Positions 2,880 to 62,853 of a DNA stretch of 64,000 nucleotides are shown one piece after another. Source of the DNA: a phage. Position numbers and translations under genes: made by a program. How positions within the stretch are numbered: position 1 is the stretch's first letter; every line of letters starts with the position of its first letter. The notes under the pieces are model-generated. The model made no database searches. It was not told the DNA's origin and worked only from the letters and a program-made list of their open reading frames with translations. The DNA is taken from assembly GCA_020241125.1 (NCBI GenBank), contig GCA_020241125.1_4708.1; one strand, written 5' to 3'.

Positions 2880-3406
2880 AAGCCCTTAAAACCCGGTGCC
2901 ATAGGTTGCCCAAACACCGCATTCAAAGTACATATGATGTCCTGGATGCCATTGTCCCAATGGAGCCAAGTACGCACCATCTCTTCGTCTGACAACGTGA
3001 TATAACTCATAAGTTTACCGCTGCTTTCCAGGCGTTGGTGTGAACTTAACGACTGACGATCTGACCAGTTATCAATCAATTGACCAGCAATCTGAACGTT
3101 CGTGTCTCGTCTACCCGTGTGAATGAACCGTAGCGTATCACGGATAAACTCCAGACTGGTGAAGTTCAGATTTGGGTTATGGCTGTTCATTTCCACCCAA
3201 TCGGTGATGGGGTACATCAAACGATAAAGGGTAGAAAGAACCTGGCGTTCATATTTCCAGTCATCGAGAGGAGTACCGTCGACCAGACGCTGATACAAAC
3301 TAACAACGTCACGATCGTAGTTCTCCTGGCGTTTTACACCGTTAACCGGAAATCCGAAGAACCCGGTACCGTATAACGTTAAAGGGACGTCACGAAGTGC
3401 ATTCAT
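2876..3406 (-). CDS. Hypothetical protein
   Basis: 176-aa ORF; 4-nt overlap with upstream gene (3403..4305), consistent with translational coupling. Confidence 0.5.
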   Translation of the reverse strand: MNALRDVPLTLYGTGFFGFPVNGVKRQENYDRDVVSLYQRLVDGTPLDDWKYERQVLSTLYRLMYPITDWVEMNSHNPNLNFTSLEFIRDTLRFIHTGRRDTNVQIAGQLIDNWSDRQSLSSHQRLESSGKLMSYITLSDEEMVRTWLHWDNGIQDIICTLNAVFGQPMAPGFKGF

Positions 3407-4305
3407 ACAGCCGCCTCTTCTTTTCGTTTAATATCATAACGAAGTTTCTTCAGTCGCTCTTCGTGATATTCGATCTGCTGCTGGATTTTTGGATCGTTGC
3501 CCGCATTCTGCTGTTTTTGCTTCAGTGACAAAATCCAATACTCCAACGCTTGGGCTTCTTCTTTGGCTGCTTGTAACGACGCTTCTTCACGTTCGCTGCG
3601 CCAGATGCGATAACGGTAAATAAGCGTGTTGGTCATTTGAGTGTCGGACCATGAGCCCATACGCATCGGGTCAGTATTACCCGCGTTGTACAATCCATTA
3701 CCAACACCGTCTTCATCAGAAACCACAACATCCGGGATTTTATCCAACCCAGCAAGGATCTGTTGTTTCTGTCCACACAGCACCTCGGTGGCGATGGCGA
3801 AACCGTACATGTTGGCGGTCAGGTAAGCAATCTCGTTTTTGGTGAAGAACTCACCAAGTGCTTTATCACCACCTGGCATGCTTTCGCAGATGACCGTCGC
3901 ACGAAGCAGCGTACGAGCGTAGCTAACGTAGAAGCCCAGGGACTCAACAAGACGTACCAGAGCGGCTTCTTTGAAACTCAGACCGTCAGCAGCAACATCG
4001 ATTTCCAGGTTTTTGTTAACACGTTTAACAATTTCTGGAATCAGATCAACAGCATTACGTAGCGCTAAGTGAACGTTTTCTACCCAGCTTCCAGAGCGAA
4101 CGCGGGTTAAACGCTGGTGCAGATCCTTATCAGCAAGTTTCCATAAGGCGCTTTCTCCCTTTTGGAGAAGCGAAGCGGATGTCTCGTAGTAAGGAATCGC
4201 GGTGTTGTTGATTTCGTCACGGATTGATTCAAGTGCGTCAGCAACACCGGTGCGTTTAAAAAGCGGCTTCAAACCGCGAATGAATTCTTTAAAATCGATT
4301 GCCAT
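3403..4305 (-). CDS. Hypothetical protein
   Basis: 300-aa ORF in same-strand operon; no recognisable motif. Confidence 0.5.
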   Translation of the reverse strand: MAIDFKEFIRGLKPLFKRTGVADALESIRDEINNTAIPYYETSASLLQKGESALWKLADKDLHQRLTRVRSGSWVENVHLALRNAVDLIPEIVKRVNKNLEIDVAADGLSFKEAALVRLVESLGFYVSYARTLLRATVICESMPGGDKALGEFFTKNEIAYLTANMYGFAIATEVLCGQKQQILAGLDKIPDVVVSDEDGVGNGLYNAGNTDPMRMGSWSDTQMTNTLIYRYRIWRSEREEASLQAAKEEAQALEYWILSLKQKQQNAGNDPKIQQQIEYHEERLKKLRYDIKRKEEAAV

Positions 4306-4344
4306 GAGTGAGCACCTATGCTATTTCGAAACAGGTTGCGTATA

Positions 4345-52913: not shown

Positions 52914-53939
52914 TCACGACTTCGCCATGTAGGGTTGAATCGCATGGAAGCGTTTAACCACAACTTCAGGAAAAAGTTTGATGATTTCATCAGGCGGTGC
53001 TGCACCTTCTGTCCAACGATAGCGTTCAACCTTCTCGATGCGTGGACTCCCTCCGACGTCAGCGATACGAAAGATACAGGCGATGCCTAAATCAAAACAC
53101 ACGCTGTAAATATCTTCCGTGCCTCCTTTATCAGCAAGTATTTTCGCAAAATGCTCGTTATCAGGAAGAATGGCTAAATTACGTATACGCCAAACATTAT
53201 TACCCATTTCTTCAAGGATTGGGTATGTTAAAGTGTGTCCGTGTCGTGTTAACCATCGATGATTTTCGAGGTAGAAGTCCTTATCCCCTGGCCGGTAACC
53301 CATAATCACTCCCGTGTAGAAGAGATTGGGCATATCGAGCAGTTCTTGAATCGTTGGGCCGGTATACTCCCAGAGACAGATTTGTTTGCGGTCTATATCG
53401 TAATCTGTAACGTTACTCACCTCCCAACTTATCGTAAGTTCGTCGATAACATGCCAACCTAAAGTGTGTTCGCAACAAAATAGATTAACAATGGCTGATA
53501 TCTCATACTTGTCAAATACCCCCAAATTACACGGTGGTTGCATCGTACGTAACGGCTCCCATAACGCACTGTAATCATAGAGCAAGTGCCGACACAAACT
53601 TTTTGTTAGTGGTGTCTGTTCAGTAAACAGTGGAAGAATCACCTTATCCAATAACAGACGTAACGGATGGTCGTCTGGTGGTAGAGGAGCAACTAGACGA
53701 CCTCCTTCTTTAGGGTAATCAGGGCCAAACCCGTAACGCTCCGAAATGAGTGCAATCAACACTTTTGCTACGCGATTACGTAGCATGCGATGGATATCAT
53801 CACTGTAACTGAATTTCGGTTTATTTCCGCAAACGAAGGTGAAGTATCTAGGTGATAGCTTAACCATAATCTTTTCCTTAATCCAAATAGTACGTGATGG
53901 ATAGGTCTTTTCCATTGAATACAATATCCGTACAGTCAT
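52914..53939 (-). CDS. Hypothetical protein
   Basis: 341-aa ORF; no recognisable motif. Confidence 0.5.
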   Translation of the reverse strand: MTVRILYSMEKTYPSRTIWIKEKIMVKLSPRYFTFVCGNKPKFSYSDDIHRMLRNRVAKVLIALISERYGFGPDYPKEGGRLVAPLPPDDHPLRLLLDKVILPLFTEQTPLTKSLCRHLLYDYSALWEPLRTMQPPCNLGVFDKYEISAIVNLFCCEHTLGWHVIDELTISWEVSNVTDYDIDRKQICLWEYTGPTIQELLDMPNLFYTGVIMGYRPGDKDFYLENHRWLTRHGHTLTYPILEEMGNNVWRIRNLAILPDNEHFAKILADKGGTEDIYSVCFDLGIACIFRIADVGGSPRIEKVERYRWTEGAAPPDEIIKLFPEVVVKRFHAIQPYMAKS

Positions 53940-54324
53940 GGATCGTCGGTAATACCATTTTGGCGGCTATCGGAACATACGCCTGCAACTCCATGAAGTT
54001 ATCCATACGGAATGCACGACGCACCATCAACGGTGTTAGTGTAAACGTTACGCTGACGTTACCGCCCGGAGTCAAGTGCATTATCGCATGCCCATGATCG
54101 CACCAACAATGGTTTTCGATCCATCCAGTGTAAATCAGAATATTTTTATCCTCATCGTAATAAGCAATGCCAGTCTGCTTTAAACGGCTGGTAAATCGAG
54201 AGGCCTGCTCATAGCCCGCACGCAACATTCGAGCAACCAGGCGAGTGTTGTTAGCGATTCGATTCTGTTCGTTGGTTTTTGTGGTTTTGAAAAGTTCGAT
54301 ACGTTCTGCTTTTGTAATTTGCAT
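53878..54324 (-). CDS. Hypothetical protein
   Basis: 148-aa ORF; overlaps downstream gene by ~60 nt so the boundary is uncertain. Confidence 0.4.
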   Translation of the reverse strand: MQITKAERIELFKTTKTNEQNRIANNTRLVARMLRAGYEQASRFTSRLKQTGIAYYDEDKNILIYTGWIENHCWCDHGHAIMHLTPGGNVSVTFTLTPLMVRRAFRMDNFMELQAYVPIAAKMVLPTIHDCTDIVFNGKDLSITYYLD

Positions 54325-54329
54325 GATTA

Positions 54330-54743
54330 CTAACCTAATGAATTGCGTTTAAATAATTGGATGTATGGGGTACCAAATAAAGGACTGTATGAATGTATTC
54401 GGTTCTCCTCTGATTCGTAATACTCGATAGGCCACGATATTGGTTTAGGTAAACGATCTAACGCTTGCAACACGGCGAGTTTAACGCTATTACTTTCGAT
54501 CGGATACGGAAGTACCGTTGACGAACAGAACACACGTGTTCGATGTAAATAAATGAGATGCTGCTGTAGCTTAGACGAACGCCTACGCTTGATTAAGAAA
54601 CCAGTTACGCGGCAATCGGAGTGATCGTAGTGATAACGTGCGCTATCGAAATAAACCTGTTCTCCTCTAACAATGAGATACTTTATCGCTTGCATGAAAG
54701 AGTAACGGCGTAATTCTCCATTAGCCAACATGACACGAATCAT
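54330..54743 (-). CDS. Hypothetical protein
   Basis: 137-aa ORF. Confidence 0.45.
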   Translation of the reverse strand: MIRVMLANGELRRYSFMQAIKYLIVRGEQVYFDSARYHYDHSDCRVTGFLIKRRRSSKLQQHLIYLHRTRVFCSSTVLPYPIESNSVKLAVLQALDRLPKPISWPIEYYESEENRIHSYSPLFGTPYIQLFKRNSLG

Positions 54744-55342
54744 TACTTATGTTCCAGTGTTGGTCCAAACAACCAGAATGTCAGGCGCTGATAGACCTGT
54801 TCGCTGACCGCGGCTTCTGTTTGCTCTTCTAGTGATTTCCCTTTTTTATGCTGTATTTCTGGCGGGATGTCGCCCGTGTAAACATACCCTGTTGAGAAGT
54901 CCCACGCCAGCCGTTTACCGAATGTGGGTAAGAACACCTCTTCGAATCGGAACGCTTTCGAATTCCAATGAAGCAGCTGATCGGATTCAACACGTAATGC
55001 TTTATTACGTTTGCTTGGCATGTTTCCGAAGTACTGAACGATGGCTGACTTCATAACCCGATCAGCGAAGTCTTTGGCTTCGGTCTCATCGAGGGGAGGC
55101 AGGCGATGCGATAGATTCAGCTTGCGTTGTTCAACATCAATCTTACGCATCGCTTTAATCAAATCACTAGGGACGATTTTACCCTTATGTCCTTCCTGTC
55201 GGTGTATGAAACACCCCTGGAATAACACGCAAAGTTCTTGAGGTGCGGTACTTTCCATTCGTCCGTAAGCAACGATCACCGAACGGCGACGGTCGATAAC
55301 TTCGCGGATAAACCGCGGCTCAGTAATACTCACCACTGTCAT
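54743..55342 (-). CDS. Hypothetical protein
   Basis: 199-aa ORF. Confidence 0.45.
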   Translation of the reverse strand: MTVVSITEPRFIREVIDRRRSVIVAYGRMESTAPQELCVLFQGCFIHRQEGHKGKIVPSDLIKAMRKIDVEQRKLNLSHRLPPLDETEAKDFADRVMKSAIVQYFGNMPSKRNKALRVESDQLLHWNSKAFRFEEVFLPTFGKRLAWDFSTGYVYTGDIPPEIQHKKGKSLEEQTEAAVSEQVYQRLTFWLFGPTLEHK

Positions 55343-55386
55343 TTAAAGCCCTCTTTATCTTTTTCCATTTCTCTTTACATAACCAC

Positions 55387-56112
55387 TTAAGACGTTGCCA
55401 TCTTATCTTCCAGAGACTTCTTCGGTAAACCATGGATAACTCCTTCCGGGGTTAAGAACACACAGTCTGGATTCTGCGTTCGCGAACGGTCGTCTGGAGT
55501 GTTCAACGAGAACAACAACGCAGAAATACCTTTCGTCCGGTTTAACGTCGCTACGATCACGTCAAGCTGCCGTAGTGCATCCGATACCGTTCGATGAGGA
55601 ACGATACGTGACTGTTTGAAGCTGGCTAACCGCCAAGTCTCGAACAAACAACGCAGTTTAAACACGTCAGACGGAACAGCAGTAGATCCCTGTTCGATAA
55701 CCTCAACCCGATCAGCTTCAGGATAACCTACGGCAACCGCACTAAAGTGTCTTACCCCATTATGAAAATCATCGATAGATGCTTCAGCGTATTTACATAC
55801 CGTGCCAGAAACGACCATCACTTTTGCTAAACCGCGATAATTGATCGTCAACGGAATACGAAATACACGTAAAGCATGTTCCGGATTTAATGAGACGTCG
55901 TTAACCTTCGTTGCGGTCAGCTTACCACGCTCGTAACGTGCGGTGAACGGCAGCCCGTCATAAACGGGATTGATTACAACGCCCCCTGGGGAGGCGTTAG
56001 CGTTAAGATGGACATTAAGCCAATCGGATACTTCCTGTCTACTAGTTACGATTAACATAAAACGGTCCTCCATTTCTTTTCCTTTATTCATGACGAGTAT
56101 CTTCCAAATCAT
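55387..56112 (-). CDS. LigA-like nucleotidyltransferase-domain protein lacking the catalytic lysine (candidate pseudo-ligase)
   Basis: NPVYDGLPFTARYERGKLTATKV and RVFRIPLTI align with [23 protein letters not shown] and the downstream region of the full-length LigA in this window, but the KxDG lysine is replaced by Val. Confidence 0.4.
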   Translation of the reverse strand: MIWKILVMNKGKEMEDRFMLIVTSRQEVSDWLNVHLNANASPGGVVINPVYDGLPFTARYERGKLTATKVNDVSLNPEHALRVFRIPLTINYRGLAKVMVVSGTVCKYAEASIDDFHNGVRHFSAVAVGYPEADRVEVIEQGSTAVPSDVFKLRCLFETWRLASFKQSRIVPHRTVSDALRQLDVIVATLNRTKGISALLFSLNTPDDRSRTQNPDCVFLTPEGVIHGLPKKSLEDKMATS

Positions 56113-56734
56113 CCCTTTGTTTTGTAAATTCTGATTGCTTGCGATAAACCGTCCACGAATCGTATATGCCGTGAAAGTTCAAATGACGTGCATTTAAGTT
56201 AACGGTGAATTCTTCCACAGAGGAGAAATCCGAACGAAGCATCGAATGGAAGGCGTCATCTCCGGTGCAGCCCCCGTATCCCTCACCCTGATAGATCAAA
56301 AGCTGATGTGGTTGAATACGCGCGGCAACCAGCGCAGCTTGTGGTTCGCAGTAAGGCGGCCACGACAGTAAAATAACATCGTACTGTGAAAGATCGATGT
56401 TCGTGTAGTCGACCTGCTGAATGTCCTCGATAAACGGGTGGGGATGTAATTCCGTATCGTAGGCGGTAACGTCCTCAACACCAAGTTTACGTAGTACATA
56501 AGTCAGGTAACCTGTCCCACAACCCAAATCAGCGACACGTCGCCCGTAACAGATATTCGCTAACTGGAGCGCGGTATCCATGGTTAACAACGACCATCCA
56601 ATGTGCTGGGTACATTCTTCACGCACACTCCATTGTTGATGGTACGTCATGGGTTCTATGATACTAGCAAGCTGCTGGTACGGCAATGGCATTCTGGTTT
56701 CGCCTTGCGTGAGTAATGCAATAACGTTGTTCAT
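56084..56734 (-). CDS. Class I SAM-dependent methyltransferase
   Basis: Motif I VADLGCGTGYL, acidic residue after beta-2 (AYDTE), and YDVILLSWPPY. Confidence 0.6.
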   Translation of the reverse strand: MNNVIALLTQGETRMPLPYQQLASIIEPMTYHQQWSVREECTQHIGWSLLTMDTALQLANICYGRRVADLGCGTGYLTYVLRKLGVEDVTAYDTELHPHPFIEDIQQVDYTNIDLSQYDVILLSWPPYCEPQAALVAARIQPHQLLIYQGEGYGGCTGDDAFHSMLRSDFSSVEEFTVNLNARHLNFHGIYDSWTVYRKQSEFTKQRDDLEDTRHE

Positions 56735-56760
56735 TTTGTTTCCTTTTTTATCAGCATAAA

Positions 56761-56779
56761 CCCTCCCGTGCCGGGAGGG
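56761..56779 (-). terminator. Short palindromic hairpin (member 12)
   Basis: CATAAA-CCCTCCCG-tgc-CGGGAGGG. Confidence 0.5.
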
Positions 56780-56784
56780 TACGA

Positions 56785-57213
56785 TTATTCATTTTCAATA
56801 ACTTTAAGATTCGGCGTACCGAGTGTTTTCTTGACCAACGCCTCAGCAACGCGTTTCTCGATGAAATCGGTCGCATTGCTTCCGTCTATCGTGCGCATGT
56901 CACCACGGAAGTTATTGAAGACCATAAACAAGTCGCAACCGTCGATAGGTATCGCAAGATCATAACTGACTTGTGATGCCGTGAAATGGACACCGACGAC
57001 AACGGCGGGAACGAATTTAACCGCTGTGTTATCTCCTTCTTCTCCGGTTCCGAACGGAAGCTCAACCCGATCACCGATAGAAAATTGCGCAACATCACCA
57101 ATGATGCGAGTTAATGCTGCTCGTTGCATGTCGGCGATATTTTCCTTATTCGCGTCGCAAGGTAGGTCTAAGACTTCTTCCAACGTGAAGAATTTACGAT
57201 CGAACCAGCTCAT
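56785..57213 (-). CDS. Hypothetical protein
   Basis: 142-aa ORF. Confidence 0.45.
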   Translation of the reverse strand: MSWFDRKFFTLEEVLDLPCDANKENIADMQRAALTRIIGDVAQFSIGDRVELPFGTGEEGDNTAVKFVPAVVVGVHFTASQVSYDLAIPIDGCDLFMVFNNFRGDMRTIDGSNATDFIEKRVAEALVKKTLGTPNLKVIENE

Positions 57214-57214
57214 G

Positions 57215-57748
57215 TTAAGCTCCTTTCTGTTTGATTGATGATGTTAACCACGATGATCTTACCGTGAAACCCTCGGACTCGTAGAACGCCTGGGCTTCGT
57301 CGTTATCAGCACGAACATCCAGGCCGATAGAATGCCCGCCGCATCGGTAAGCGATGTTACGTGCTTCGTTCATCAAGGCGTGGCCGATCCCGCGTCCACG
57401 GTATTCCGGTTTTACAACAATCGATGTAACATCATGAATGCCCATATGGCTCTCTGTATTCACTTCCAAGAGGCCTACCGGTATCGAAGCGATGGTGTCG
57501 ATCATAACGACCAACTTTGCGGTGTCCGGTAAACGCTTCTCTAATTCTAAGGCATCGTACTCGCGTTTTAAATCGGGGATATTCTCAAACATAAACGTGG
57601 TTGCCCATGCCTCTGATTCTACATCATCGAGAATACGGTACAGCTCACGAATCTGTCGTTTATGTGGGTAAAGGTGTGGATCGGCAGCCGTTGAGGCGAT
57701 AACGCAATAGAACGGCCGTTCATTAATAACTACTGTTTTGATGCTCAT
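57215..57748 (-). CDS. GNAT-family N-acetyltransferase
   Basis: Acetyl-CoA binding motif RGRGIGHALMNEA followed by AQAFYESEGF. Confidence 0.65.
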   Translation of the reverse strand: MSIKTVVINERPFYCVIASTAADPHLYPHKRQIRELYRILDDVESEAWATTFMFENIPDLKREYDALELEKRLPDTAKLVVMIDTIASIPVGLLEVNTESHMGIHDVTSIVVKPEYRGRGIGHALMNEARNIAYRCGGHSIGLDVRADNDEAQAFYESEGFTVRSSWLTSSIKQKGA

Positions 57749-58251
57749 GCTAAAATTCCCTCATTACCTAACAGTCGATTACGGTGACGTCGGTACATTT
57801 GACAAAGTGTTGTGATTTGATAAAGTTTGTTATAACGTAATTCGATACGTTTTTGCACCTCTTTCCATGAAAGTTTATCATATTGCCGATAACGATGGAT
57901 TTCATTCAACATCCGAAGACGCGTAGGATCGGTATTCTTTATTGTTACGAGCTTCACGCGTTGGTATCCGCGCTGCAACCCCGATTCAGAATACGTAATG
58001 CCGAACTCATCCTGAATGATAGTAATGATCTCCCGCCATCGGCGCTTCTCGCCGTCACGTAAATGGACAACCCGCGATAAGATATCGTTCCGATTACGAT
58101 GACTCAGTTTAATGTTAAGCATTGAAGCAATCGCGCTAATTGCTCTCTGACTCCGCCCTAACGCCTCACCGATCTCTTTCGATGTCATGACGCCAGCGTT
58201 TCGACGTATGAATGCGATTTCGGTTGTTGTGTATTCTTTACCTGCCGCCAT
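57745..58251 (-). CDS. HTH-repeat DNA-binding protein, paralog 1 of 6 (Myb/SANT-like)
   Basis: 168 aa; YTTTEIAFIRRNAGVMTSKEIGEALGRSQRAISAI HTH unit plus basic C-terminal unit; homologous to five upstream neighbours. Confidence 0.55.
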   Translation of the reverse strand: MAAGKEYTTTEIAFIRRNAGVMTSKEIGEALGRSQRAISAIASMLNIKLSHRNRNDILSRVVHLRDGEKRRWREIITIIQDEFGITYSESGLQRGYQRVKLVTIKNTDPTRLRMLNEIHRYRQYDKLSWKEVQKRIELRYNKLYQITTLCQMYRRHRNRLLGNEGILA

Positions 58252-58715
58252 TTCTTACCACGCGTGTTATAATAGTAACGTTGACAAAGATGTGTGTGAT
58301 GGTACTCCCGTTTGAACTCGACATTGATAATGCGAGCAACTTCTCTCCAGCTAACCCCTTCATGTCGAAGTGTCGTGATACGGTCTGAAATTTTGCACCA
58401 TTCACCAGGATCGTATCGTCGCAGTTTATGACGTCGTATTACGGAGGCGACGCTCGCTTTCGAGCGACCAAGATGATTCGACATTCGTTTAATCGAGTAT
58501 CTATGGATATTATCGCGAATATAGGAAAGCTCGTTGTCTGTATACGTCGCGTTGGTTCTCGGCGAAGGGAACAATACGTATAACTTATTCTTAATCGCGC
58601 TTTCTGTGCGTTGAAACACGGTAACCAGTTCACTAATCGATGGTCTAGGTATTTGATACGCGTAATTCTCGAGGCGTGAGAGTTCCTCATCTGTCCAGCG
58701 GCGGTATTTGCGCAT
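58185..58715 (-). CDS. HTH-repeat DNA-binding protein, paralog 2 of 6
   Basis: Start set at internal Met (MRKYRRWTDEEL) to avoid overlap with upstream gene; three units, e.g. WTDEELSRL...ISELVTVFQRTESAIKNKL. Confidence 0.55.
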   Translation of the reverse strand: MRKYRRWTDEELSRLENYAYQIPRPSISELVTVFQRTESAIKNKLYVLFPSPRTNATYTDNELSYIRDNIHRYSIKRMSNHLGRSKASVASVIRRHKLRRYDPGEWCKISDRITTLRHEGVSWREVARIINVEFKREYHHTHLCQRYYYNTRGKKWRQVKNTQQPKSHSYVETLAS

Positions 58716-59190
58716 GGGCAACTCCTTTGTTTTTCGTGTAATAACACCAACGTTGATACAACGCATGTTTATTCGTTGTAATCCCAAATTTAACAACAAC
58801 GTCGTATGTGATAATATTCCAATTTTGGGTGACGTTAAGTCGTTCCGCGATAAACGCGATAATCGCTTCCCGTTCTTGCTTGGTTAACGCACGACGAATT
58901 CCATTAAGCCGTATAAACTGACGAACCGAGTCATACGAACGGTTTAAATCATACGCAATCTCCCTCAGCGATTTTTGTTTGATTACGGACTTGATGTACG
59001 CACGTTCTTCTTCCGTATACGGTCGATGCTTCTGGCGTTGACGTATTCCCAAACGCCCCAGACACGCGTCGATGCTGGCGTATGTTCGTCCTGTCCGTTG
59101 TGCGATTTCATCAATCGTCAGCGGCGTGTTCAAGTACATGTGTGTAACATCTTTTAACTCATCGTTACGCCACGGCCGAGGTCGTCCCAT
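58687..59190 (-). CDS. HTH-repeat DNA-binding protein, paralog 3 of 6
   Basis: 167 aa; WRNDELKDV...IDEIAQRTGRTYASIDACLGRL and two further units. Confidence 0.6.
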   Translation of the reverse strand: MGRPRPWRNDELKDVTHMYLNTPLTIDEIAQRTGRTYASIDACLGRLGIRQRQKHRPYTEEERAYIKSVIKQKSLREIAYDLNRSYDSVRQFIRLNGIRRALTKQEREAIIAFIAERLNVTQNWNIITYDVVVKFGITTNKHALYQRWCYYTKNKGVAHAQIPPLDR

Positions 59191-59668
59191 CTTGTATCCC
59201 TCTTTTCTTTCTATGATGCCACCAACGCTGATAAACAGCTTGCTTCGTCCGTGTTATGCCAAAATGCGCATTAACCCGTTCAGCAATGTGGTACCAATCC
59301 TGCGTTTCTTCTAACAATGCATCAACGAAGGCTATGAAGATCTTAGTATCATCCTCGCTTAACCGCTTGAAGCCATGGCGGTGTGCTATTGTTCGAATAC
59401 TGTTTGGATCTCTGTTTAAATCGCGTGCGAGCTGTTTGTAACTTTTGTGCTTACAGTGTAGTCTGATATGTTCTAATTCATCGACGCTGAAACGTTTATG
59501 CGGTTTACGGCGTTCGACGTTTAAGTACCTCAACCTTGATTCGATTGCACCGTACGTCGTTTCCATGATTTCCGCGATTTCACGGATTTTTAATTTCGGG
59601 CGACGATCGTATAGTTTCAGCAACTGCTCATCGTACTTACGATTCCATCGTCGTACTGGGGGTTTCAC
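59165..59668 (-). CDS. HTH-repeat DNA-binding protein, paralog 4 of 6
   Basis: 167 aa; same three-unit architecture, C-terminal ...HFGITRTKQAVYQRW conserved with paralog 3. Confidence 0.6.
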   Translation of the reverse strand: MKPPVRRWNRKYDEQLLKLYDRRPKLKIREIAEIMETTYGAIESRLRYLNVERRKPHKRFSVDELEHIRLHCKHKSYKQLARDLNRDPNSIRTIAHRHGFKRLSEDDTKIFIAFVDALLEETQDWYHIAERVNAHFGITRTKQAVYQRWWHHRKKRGIQDGTTSAVA

Positions 59669-59670
59669 AA

Positions 59671-60150
59671 CTAGATTTCTCCTGTTCTACGCGTTTTTAA
59701 TGCTTGAGTGTAGTAAAGGGTATGAACACCGCTTAACGTGTAATGGGTGTTAAATTCGTTATTGATGATATTCTGTATTCTCTCCCAGGTTTTCTTCTCT
59801 TTTCTAAGAGTATGTATTCGGTGATAGATCATCTCTCGACGTTGCGCTTTGCACGCGATAATACCGTAGCGGTAGCAGAGTTTAGCGATCGCATCCACGC
59901 TACGATTGAACATTACCGCGGCTTCTTTCACGCTGTGCGTCTTGAGATAATCGGCTAACATCACGCGTTCTTCGAAACAACAATAGCGGTGACGCGACGT
60001 GAGTTTCCAGCGCTTGCGATTACGGTTAATTCGACCTTGAACCGAACCTTCCGTTCGGCCAAGTCGTACCGCAATCTCTTGCATCGGTATACCGTTTCGG
60101 TACAGGGTAATCAACATCGCATCTTCTTCGGGTGTCCAGTCCTTGACCAT
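59671..60150 (-). CDS. HTH-repeat DNA-binding protein, paralog 5 of 6
   Basis: 159 aa; WTPEEDAMLITLYRNGIPMQEIAVRLGRTEGSVQGRINR fits Myb/SANT consensus W-T-x-EED-x-L...IA..L.GRT. Confidence 0.6.
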   Translation of the reverse strand: MVKDWTPEEDAMLITLYRNGIPMQEIAVRLGRTEGSVQGRINRNRKRWKLTSRHRYCCFEERVMLADYLKTHSVKEAAVMFNRSVDAIAKLCYRYGIIACKAQRREMIYHRIHTLRKEKKTWERIQNIINNEFNTHYTLSGVHTLYYTQALKTRRTGEI

Positions 60151-60162
60151 AATGCCACCCCA

Positions 60163-62853
<2,691 letters not shown>

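Follow-up and report, generated by a model that had tools for sequence, protein, structure and literature searches.

A possible catalytically dead remnant of a NAD-dependent DNA ligase adenylation domain in Goslar-like jumbo phages

The gp110 protein of Goslar-like phages is explained best, with modest confidence, as a non-catalytic binding scaffold maintained by selection, in which residues 1 to ~90, and probably residues 130–168, would be a very diverged remnant of the adenylation (nucleotidyltransferase, NTase) domain of NAD-dependent DNA ligase, LigA. The proposed remnant would keep the structural residues of that domain and would have lost those that carry out the chemistry or hold AMP. 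The protein may thus act as a binding module, in the manner of a pseudoenzyme scaffold, and its partner would most plausibly be a nucleic acid, or a protein for which the ligase NTase domain is the usual docking site. From sequence comparison, we infer its common ancestry with LigA, its fold and any binding function. The DNA analysed, referred to here as the window, is a stretch of 64,000 nucleotides that also encodes an intact LigA.

Gene identity and start

At 92% DNA identity over positions 53000–58000, the window is closely related to Escherichia phage vB_EcoM_Goslar, a member of the genus Goslarvirus and one of the nucleus-forming jumbo phages of E. coli. The first-pass annotation described a 241-aa protein at 55387..56112. 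This open reading frame is present on the minus strand, translates as quoted and contains NPVYDGLPFTARYERGKL and RVFRIPLTI, but the length of 241 aa is probably too great. The orthologue of this frame in Goslar, at 94.6% amino acid identity, is gp110 (HOV27_gp110), a 223-aa product listed there as a hypothetical protein. Codon 19 of the frame, the ATG at 56058 (Met19), is kept in all homologues, is the start annotated in Goslar and is preceded at 7 nt by a Shine–Dalgarno-like GGAGGA; the most likely product is therefore a protein of 223 aa that starts at Met19. The proteins of Goslar and of a further homologue, P0003, begin at MLIVT. The 18-codon extension shares 29 nt with the 3′ end of the methyltransferase gene upstream, whose stop lies at 56084–56086. 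Another ATG, at 56073 (MEDRF…), is a possible start that some gene callers choose, as in homologue P0002. The opposite strand of the gene has no competing open reading frame of 60 aa or more, and scans for sigma-70 promoters and terminators returned nothing exceeding chance. The features of the gene, and the phage ligase, are as follows.

55387..56058, minus strand: most likely coding sequence of the gp110 orthologue, 223 aa plus stop (Goslar annotation, homologue starts, dN/dS)
56059..56112, minus strand: N-terminal extension of 18 codons, probably untranslated (absent or variable in homologues)
56066..56071, minus strand: GGAGGA, Shine–Dalgarno-like, upstream of the ATG at 56058 (read from the sequence)
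55792..56046, minus strand: residues 5–89, similar to the first half of the LigA adenylation (NTase) domain (hhalign P = 6.7e-5, null P = 5e-5)
55918..55980, minus strand: motif I-like patch VVINPVYDGLPFTARYERGKL, residues 27–47, with Val32 (55963–55965) opposite the adenylated Lys of KxDG
55672..55776, minus strand: residues 95–129, acidic and least conserved (49% invariant columns), an insertion relative to LigA (~90–128) in the MAFFT alignment
55555..55671, minus strand: residues 130–168 (…IVPHRTVSDALRQLD), a weak collinear match to the LigA segment ending NPRNAAAGSLRQLD, a helix (hhalign P = 0.05–0.1, MAFFT)
55390..55554, minus strand: residues 169–223, the C-terminal part, with detectable similarity neither to LigA nor to other proteins (hhalign P = 0.6–0.8)
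60476..62545, minus strand: intact NAD-dependent DNA ligase of 689 aa with Ia, adenylation, OB, Zn, HhH and BRCT domains (Pfam, PHROG; Goslar gp121)

Distribution and selection

A word index of 5.8 billion protein clusters yielded four relatives of the gp110 orthologue at 70–97% identity; when 1.84 billion representatives were searched exhaustively with a HMMER profile, a 39-aa fragment was all that was added. Two further Goslar-like genomes with an orthologue were found in IMG/VR, and Goslar was the sole match by tblastn among 50,697 phage records. Distant relatives were sought in the same word index, representatives, IMG/VR and phage genomes and in the PDB sequences, and every search returned Goslar-like copies only; the gp110 family is therefore an orphan limited to Goslar-like phages among the 15 billion proteins searched. 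No family member matched Pfam, PHROGs, NCBIfam, PADLOC or PDB sequences, even at permissive thresholds, and these collections hold no rival family to which the protein could be assigned. Libraries of defence and anti-defence proteins likewise gave no match to the orthologue, and the literature mentions neither Goslar gp110 nor its accession.

Gene order is preserved in the two IMG/VR genomes and in L002, a Goslar-like contig of 244 kb that comes from a Shigella sample; no genome has an interrupted reading frame. Across four sequences, namely the window, Goslar, the 244-kb contig and a divergent 3.2-kb contig (L003), dN/dS is 0.06–0.12 with dS up to more than 1. The gp110 family is thus under strong purifying selection, and the gene is a functional protein-coding gene and not a decaying copy.

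Similarity to the LigA adenylation domain

In a BLASTP comparison with the window LigA, only a 20-residue patch, VINPVYDGLPFTARYERGKL, was aligned (9/20 identical, E = 0.008 for this single pair), and the pairing sets a Val of the gp110 orthologue opposite the motif I Lys of LigA. With filters off, an HMM built from 117 diverse LigA adenylation domains gave the motif I patch 4.6–7.2 bits; in a search of the 315 stop-to-stop open reading frames of the window under the same setting, the gp110 orthologue ranked third, with E = 0.22. The Pfam model PF01653 matched no family member even at E ≤ 10, so that its gathering score was not reached, and the PHROG ligase families and NCBIfam were also negative. 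As the window-wide E-value is 0.22 and the score falls below that of a spurious reading frame, the patch by itself is not beyond chance once multiple testing is counted. The parallel with LigA that had been noted from the sequence is accordingly present, and the pairwise alignment reproduces it with Val at the Lys position, but it is insignificant on its own.

The spurious frame, 3406..4320 on the minus strand (305 aa), ranked second against the LigA HMM with 7.4 bits. Its match sets a charged, Glu/Lys/Gln-rich helical C terminus against a poorly conserved part of the model, and its sole Pfam hint is DUF6164 (E = 0.027). The match is a chance one and calibrates how weak such matches are.

Profile–profile comparison extends the similarity beyond the patch. 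When the gp110 family alignment was compared by hhalign with the 117 LigA adenylation domains, 85 collinear columns were aligned at P = 6.7e-5 and a probability of 64%; P-values that include the patch are optimistic, since the hypothesis was chosen after the patch had been seen, and the profile is thin, since the family consists of four closely related sequences. The aligned span starts with the helix (SRQEVSDW / SEEELRNW) that follows the LigA 'PMLSL' strand, crosses motif I and the 'IPL' strand and ends with motif III (VVSGTV / EVRGEV). None of 170 column-shuffled alignments reached the observed score (mean 15.0, maximum 25.6 versus 37.0; Gumbel P = 5e-5), and the reversed family alignment scored 19 versus 37. 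Correction of the hhalign value for the ~124 open reading frames of the window gives ~0.008. In single-sequence hhalign runs with 124 window reading frames, the gp110 orthologue was the best non-LigA protein (P = 0.0011; next best 0.019), and the other 123 frames behaved as a well-calibrated null. It was also the top non-LigA frame of the window by semi-global profile score.

Global collinear alignment to the LigA profile, from 'MLSL' to 'LGxTS', gave z = 6.5 against shuffled sequences (0/300) and z = 5.0 when the controls were 44 real segments, each of 223 aa, from other proteins of the window. Because the hypothesis had been picked on the motif I patch, the flanks were re-tested with the patch removed. 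The N-terminal flank gave z = 3.7, a score reached by 0/500 shuffles and 1/176 real controls, and the remainder after the patch gave z = 3.1 (1/300 shuffles, 1/44 real controls). Similarly, the best hhalign matches of sub-segments fell at the collinear LigA position for residues 1–26 (P = 0.076), 51–94 (P = 0.029) and 130–168 (P = 0.05). An unguided MAFFT alignment lays the gp110 orthologue along the LigA domain and pairs IVPHRTVSDALRQLD with a 15-residue LigA segment. Invariant columns make up 65–72% of the family alignment outside residues 95–129, and conservation within the family is highest in the ligase-like segments.

The C-terminal 55 residues, compared alone by hhalign, gave P = 0.6–0.8 and nothing at motif IV. 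A collinearity of the whole protein as far as motif IV, suggested by eye (PEGVIHGL…KMATS versus IDGMVIKLN…KLGATS), was rejected on this result for the tail. A remote relationship to the LigA NTase domain is the only homology signal from the gp110 orthologue. The similarity is statistically marginal to moderate, and the alignments suggest that common ancestry of the gp110 family with LigA is probable. The earlier proposal of a ligase-derived protein gains from a remote signal that reaches beyond the patch (residues 5–89 and, weakly, 130–168), but it is held back by the hhalign probability of 64% and by the empty C-terminal 55 residues.

Catalytic residues and predicted activity

In all 117 LigAs the Lys, Asp and Gly of motif I, the Arg of TRGDG, the Arg and Glu of the motif III sequence RGE and the Asp, Gly and Lys of the motif IV sequence DGxVxK are invariant. 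Their counterparts in the gp110 orthologue are listed below; the motif IV positions come from the global alignment.

Motif I Lys: Val32, with Val in all homologues
Motif I Asp: Asp34 in the window, Asn in Goslar and Ala in P0003 (D/N/A within the family)
Motif I Gly: Gly35
TRGDG Arg: gap
Motif III Arg: Ser84
Motif III Glu: Thr86
Motif IV Asp: Glu205 (weakly aligned)
Motif IV Lys: Gly210 (weakly aligned)
Motif V: no counterpart, as the protein ends before motif V

Replacement of the catalytic Lys by Val, as first read from the window sequence, is real and extends to every homologue; none retains Lys. The lysine nearest to Val32 is K46, 14 residues downstream, with none within 13 residues. Given the invariant Val and the distance of K46, a catalytic lysine at a shifted position was considered and rejected. 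The residues that are kept are structural: hydrophobic residues of the strands, the turns at DG and YExG, the IPL sequence and the motif III Gly. In the 223-aa protein, Pfam detected none of the Ia, NTase, OB, Zn, HhH and BRCT domains, and the protein lacks the NMN-binding domain Ia and all of the DNA-clamping domains.

With every catalytic residue lost, the gp110 orthologue cannot be a ligase and, as judged from its aligned residues, cannot self-adenylate or seal nicks. If it is homologous to LigA, the catalytic and AMP-contacting residues are replaced or missing, which makes binding of NAD+ or AMP in the canonical pocket unlikely. The suggestion that the protein could bind NAD thus finds no footing, as the Lys, the motif III Arg and Glu and the TRGDG Arg are lost, and motif V and domain Ia are absent.

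Pseudoenzymes are catalytically dead homologues that are retained for binding or regulation. In the gp110 family, replacement of the catalytic positions is combined with purifying selection in four genomes (dN/dS 0.06–0.12), a likeness to pseudoenzymes that is qualified by a homology to the parent enzyme that is no more than probable. With a conserved loss of Lys and a gene under selection, a pseudoenzyme, as proposed in the first-pass annotation, is the best available reading, but homology is unproven. No LigA-derived pseudoenzyme was found described in the literature.

Predicted structure

The NTase fold of LigA consists of two antiparallel beta-sheets around a nucleotide pocket. AlphaFold2 gave a pLDDT of 34 from the 4-sequence family alignment, and a Foldseek search of the PDB with this model returned only noise. 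Addition of 46 LigA sequences raised the mean pLDDT to 49, with only residues ~33–90 reaching 64–85, in a run that is circular. The LigA-informed model superposes on LigA structures with a TM-score of ~0.3, which is weak and equally circular. The C-terminal 130 residues were not pulled into a ligase fold, and this modelling argues against their being an ordinary half of a LigA NTase domain.

Comparison with LigA and other ligase derivatives

The intact 689-aa LigA reported near the gene was confirmed with all of its Pfam domains, and the gp110 orthologue lies 4.4 kb from it on the same strand. Its adenylation, OB, Zn, HhH and BRCT domains exceed the Pfam threshold, whereas domain Ia falls below it (PF22745, 16.3 bits versus 27) and is therefore unusually diverged. 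In a fixed alignment, the window LigA ranks only 102nd of 117 in similarity to the gp110 orthologue. Since it is not the closest LigA, there is no sign of a recent duplication of ligA within the genome, and such an origin was rejected.

The likeness of the gp110 orthologue to LigA NTase domains (PF01653; E. coli LigA, PDB 2OWO and 5TT5; the gp121 orthologue) consists of residues 5–89 in collinear order. The landmarks matched are motif I (xPxYDGL…YExGxL), 'IPL', motif III (xVxGxV) and, weakly, the NPRNAAAGSLRQLD helix, and at 223 aa the protein is about the size of one LigA NTase domain. Unlike LigA, it lacks the catalytic Lys, the motif III Arg and Glu and the lysines of motifs IV and V, stays below curated thresholds and has an unrelated C-terminal quarter.

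Phages also encode split or partial LigAs, among them the T5-like heterodimeric NAD-ligase (PR1 phage ligase, PDB 9HU3 and 9I5I), PHROG 3359 (N-terminal half), PHROG 3498 (C-terminal half) and PHROG 2561, a stand-alone BRCT 'DNA ligase'. Like the gp110 orthologue, these are phage-encoded and each represents part of the LigA architecture. In contrast, the split pieces retain the catalytic motifs and together form an active ligase, and family models detect them easily; the gp110 orthologue lacks the catalytic residues and is recognised by none of these models.

In E. coli, LigB is a second, reduced NAD-dependent ligase beside a full LigA in one genome; it keeps the KxDG lysine, ligase activity and most LigA domains. 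The gp110 orthologue resembles LigB as a second, reduced LigA-like protein beside a full LigA, but differs from it in lacking the KxDG lysine and most LigA domains and in its predicted lack of ligase activity.

Genomic neighbourhood

The gene belongs to a minus-strand run that comprises, in order, LigA, six HTH paralogues, a GNAT acetyltransferase, a gp112-like protein, a class I SAM methyltransferase, the gp110 orthologue and four unknowns. In the divergent 3.2-kb contig, the methyltransferase and the homologues of gp112 and gp109 are missing, while the gp110 orthologue stays (70% identity), together with GNAT (83%), HTH paralogues and gp108/gp107 (75–80%). Since the methyltransferase is absent there and the gp110 orthologue is kept, the two do not form a conserved functional module, and an obligate module of the adjacent genes was rejected. 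The earlier idea that the gene belongs to an accessory module is weak for the same reason, as gp112 and gp109 are lost along with the methyltransferase.

Among the genes retained in the 3.2-kb contig, the gp110 orthologue is the most diverged (70% versus 71–83%), and its surroundings are an indel hotspot among Goslar-like phages (L003:1308-2613 versus window 54330..57213). The methyltransferase (56084..56734, minus strand) shows only the SAM-binding motif of many families, with all matches below Pfam cut-offs; it matches PHROG 19090, of function not known, at E = 1e-17 and, weakly, PADLOC mad2 and MTase_II at E~1e-5. The HTH paralogues, at 57745..60510 on the minus strand between ligA and GNAT, are six tandem, partly overlapping SANT/Myb-like proteins of 115–204 aa with 22–37% pairwise identity. 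Seven genes (gp114–gp120) are annotated in this interval in Goslar, so the HTH copy number seems to differ between close relatives; the 3.2-kb contig has members of the array too.

Weighing the explanations

The principal rival, to which a substantial minority of the probability is assigned, is that gp110 is an unrelated, lineage-specific orphan, arisen de novo or diverged beyond recognition, whose likeness to LigA was picked out post hoc from chance resemblance. Such an origin would fit a protein that finds no match in Pfam, PHROGs, NCBIfam or the PDB, that scores E = 0.22 at window scale beneath a spurious frame, and whose C-terminal tail matches nothing; the structural predictions offer no independent support for a ligase fold (pLDDT 34, Foldseek noise), and even the 'D' of KxDG is not conserved within the family. 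It fits less well with the hhalign P-value of 6.7e-5, with which the empirical null agrees and which is still ~0.008 after correction for ~124 frames. Moreover, the 85 collinear columns meet three separate LigA landmarks in order, and segments outside the patch on which the hypothesis was picked also score at collinear positions.

Where LigA ancestry is accepted, the preferred reading is the non-catalytic scaffold. A more specific role, in which Goslar-like phages use the dead NTase remnant as a decoy or regulator, is considered improbable: the protein could, for example, attach to DNA ends that are nicked or adenylated, or it could occupy the partner domains of the host or phage ligase so that nick sealing is blocked or redirected. 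An active nucleotidyltransferase or ligase that employs another nucleophile (e.g. K46 or K51) or a non-covalent mechanism is very unlikely. Lysines 46 and 51 do lie just past the motif I-like strand of a gene under selection, but the rest of the motif residues for nucleotide binding and catalysis have also been replaced or lost, the Asp of motif I is not fixed (D/N/A), and the protein lacks domain Ia and OB; we know of no precedent for an active ligase with an alternative nucleophile. Least likely of all is a decaying duplicate of the phage's own ligA. Its position 4.4 kb from ligA on the same strand might suggest such a pseudogene, yet the frame is intact in all genomes and the similarity rank of the window LigA betrays no recent duplication; the dN/dS of 0.06–0.12 excludes decay.

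Implications

For the present, the annotation 'possible degenerate LigA NTase-like, non-catalytic', together with the corrected gene start, is offered for one orphan gene of a small clade, and annotation of the gp110 orthologue as a ligase or a NAD-binding protein is warned against. If both the homology and the binding role are true, the core of a DNA ligase has been recycled as a non-enzymatic protein, a class that was not found described for NAD-dependent ligases. The gp110 family would then be a stand-alone, catalytically dead derivative of the LigA core limited to one small phage clade. Were the decoy reading true, it would be the first pseudoenzyme derived from LigA and perhaps a ligase antagonist encoded by a phage. 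The proposed relationship and binding role, if true, would also offer a way into one of the many genes of nucleus-forming jumbo phages that lack annotation.
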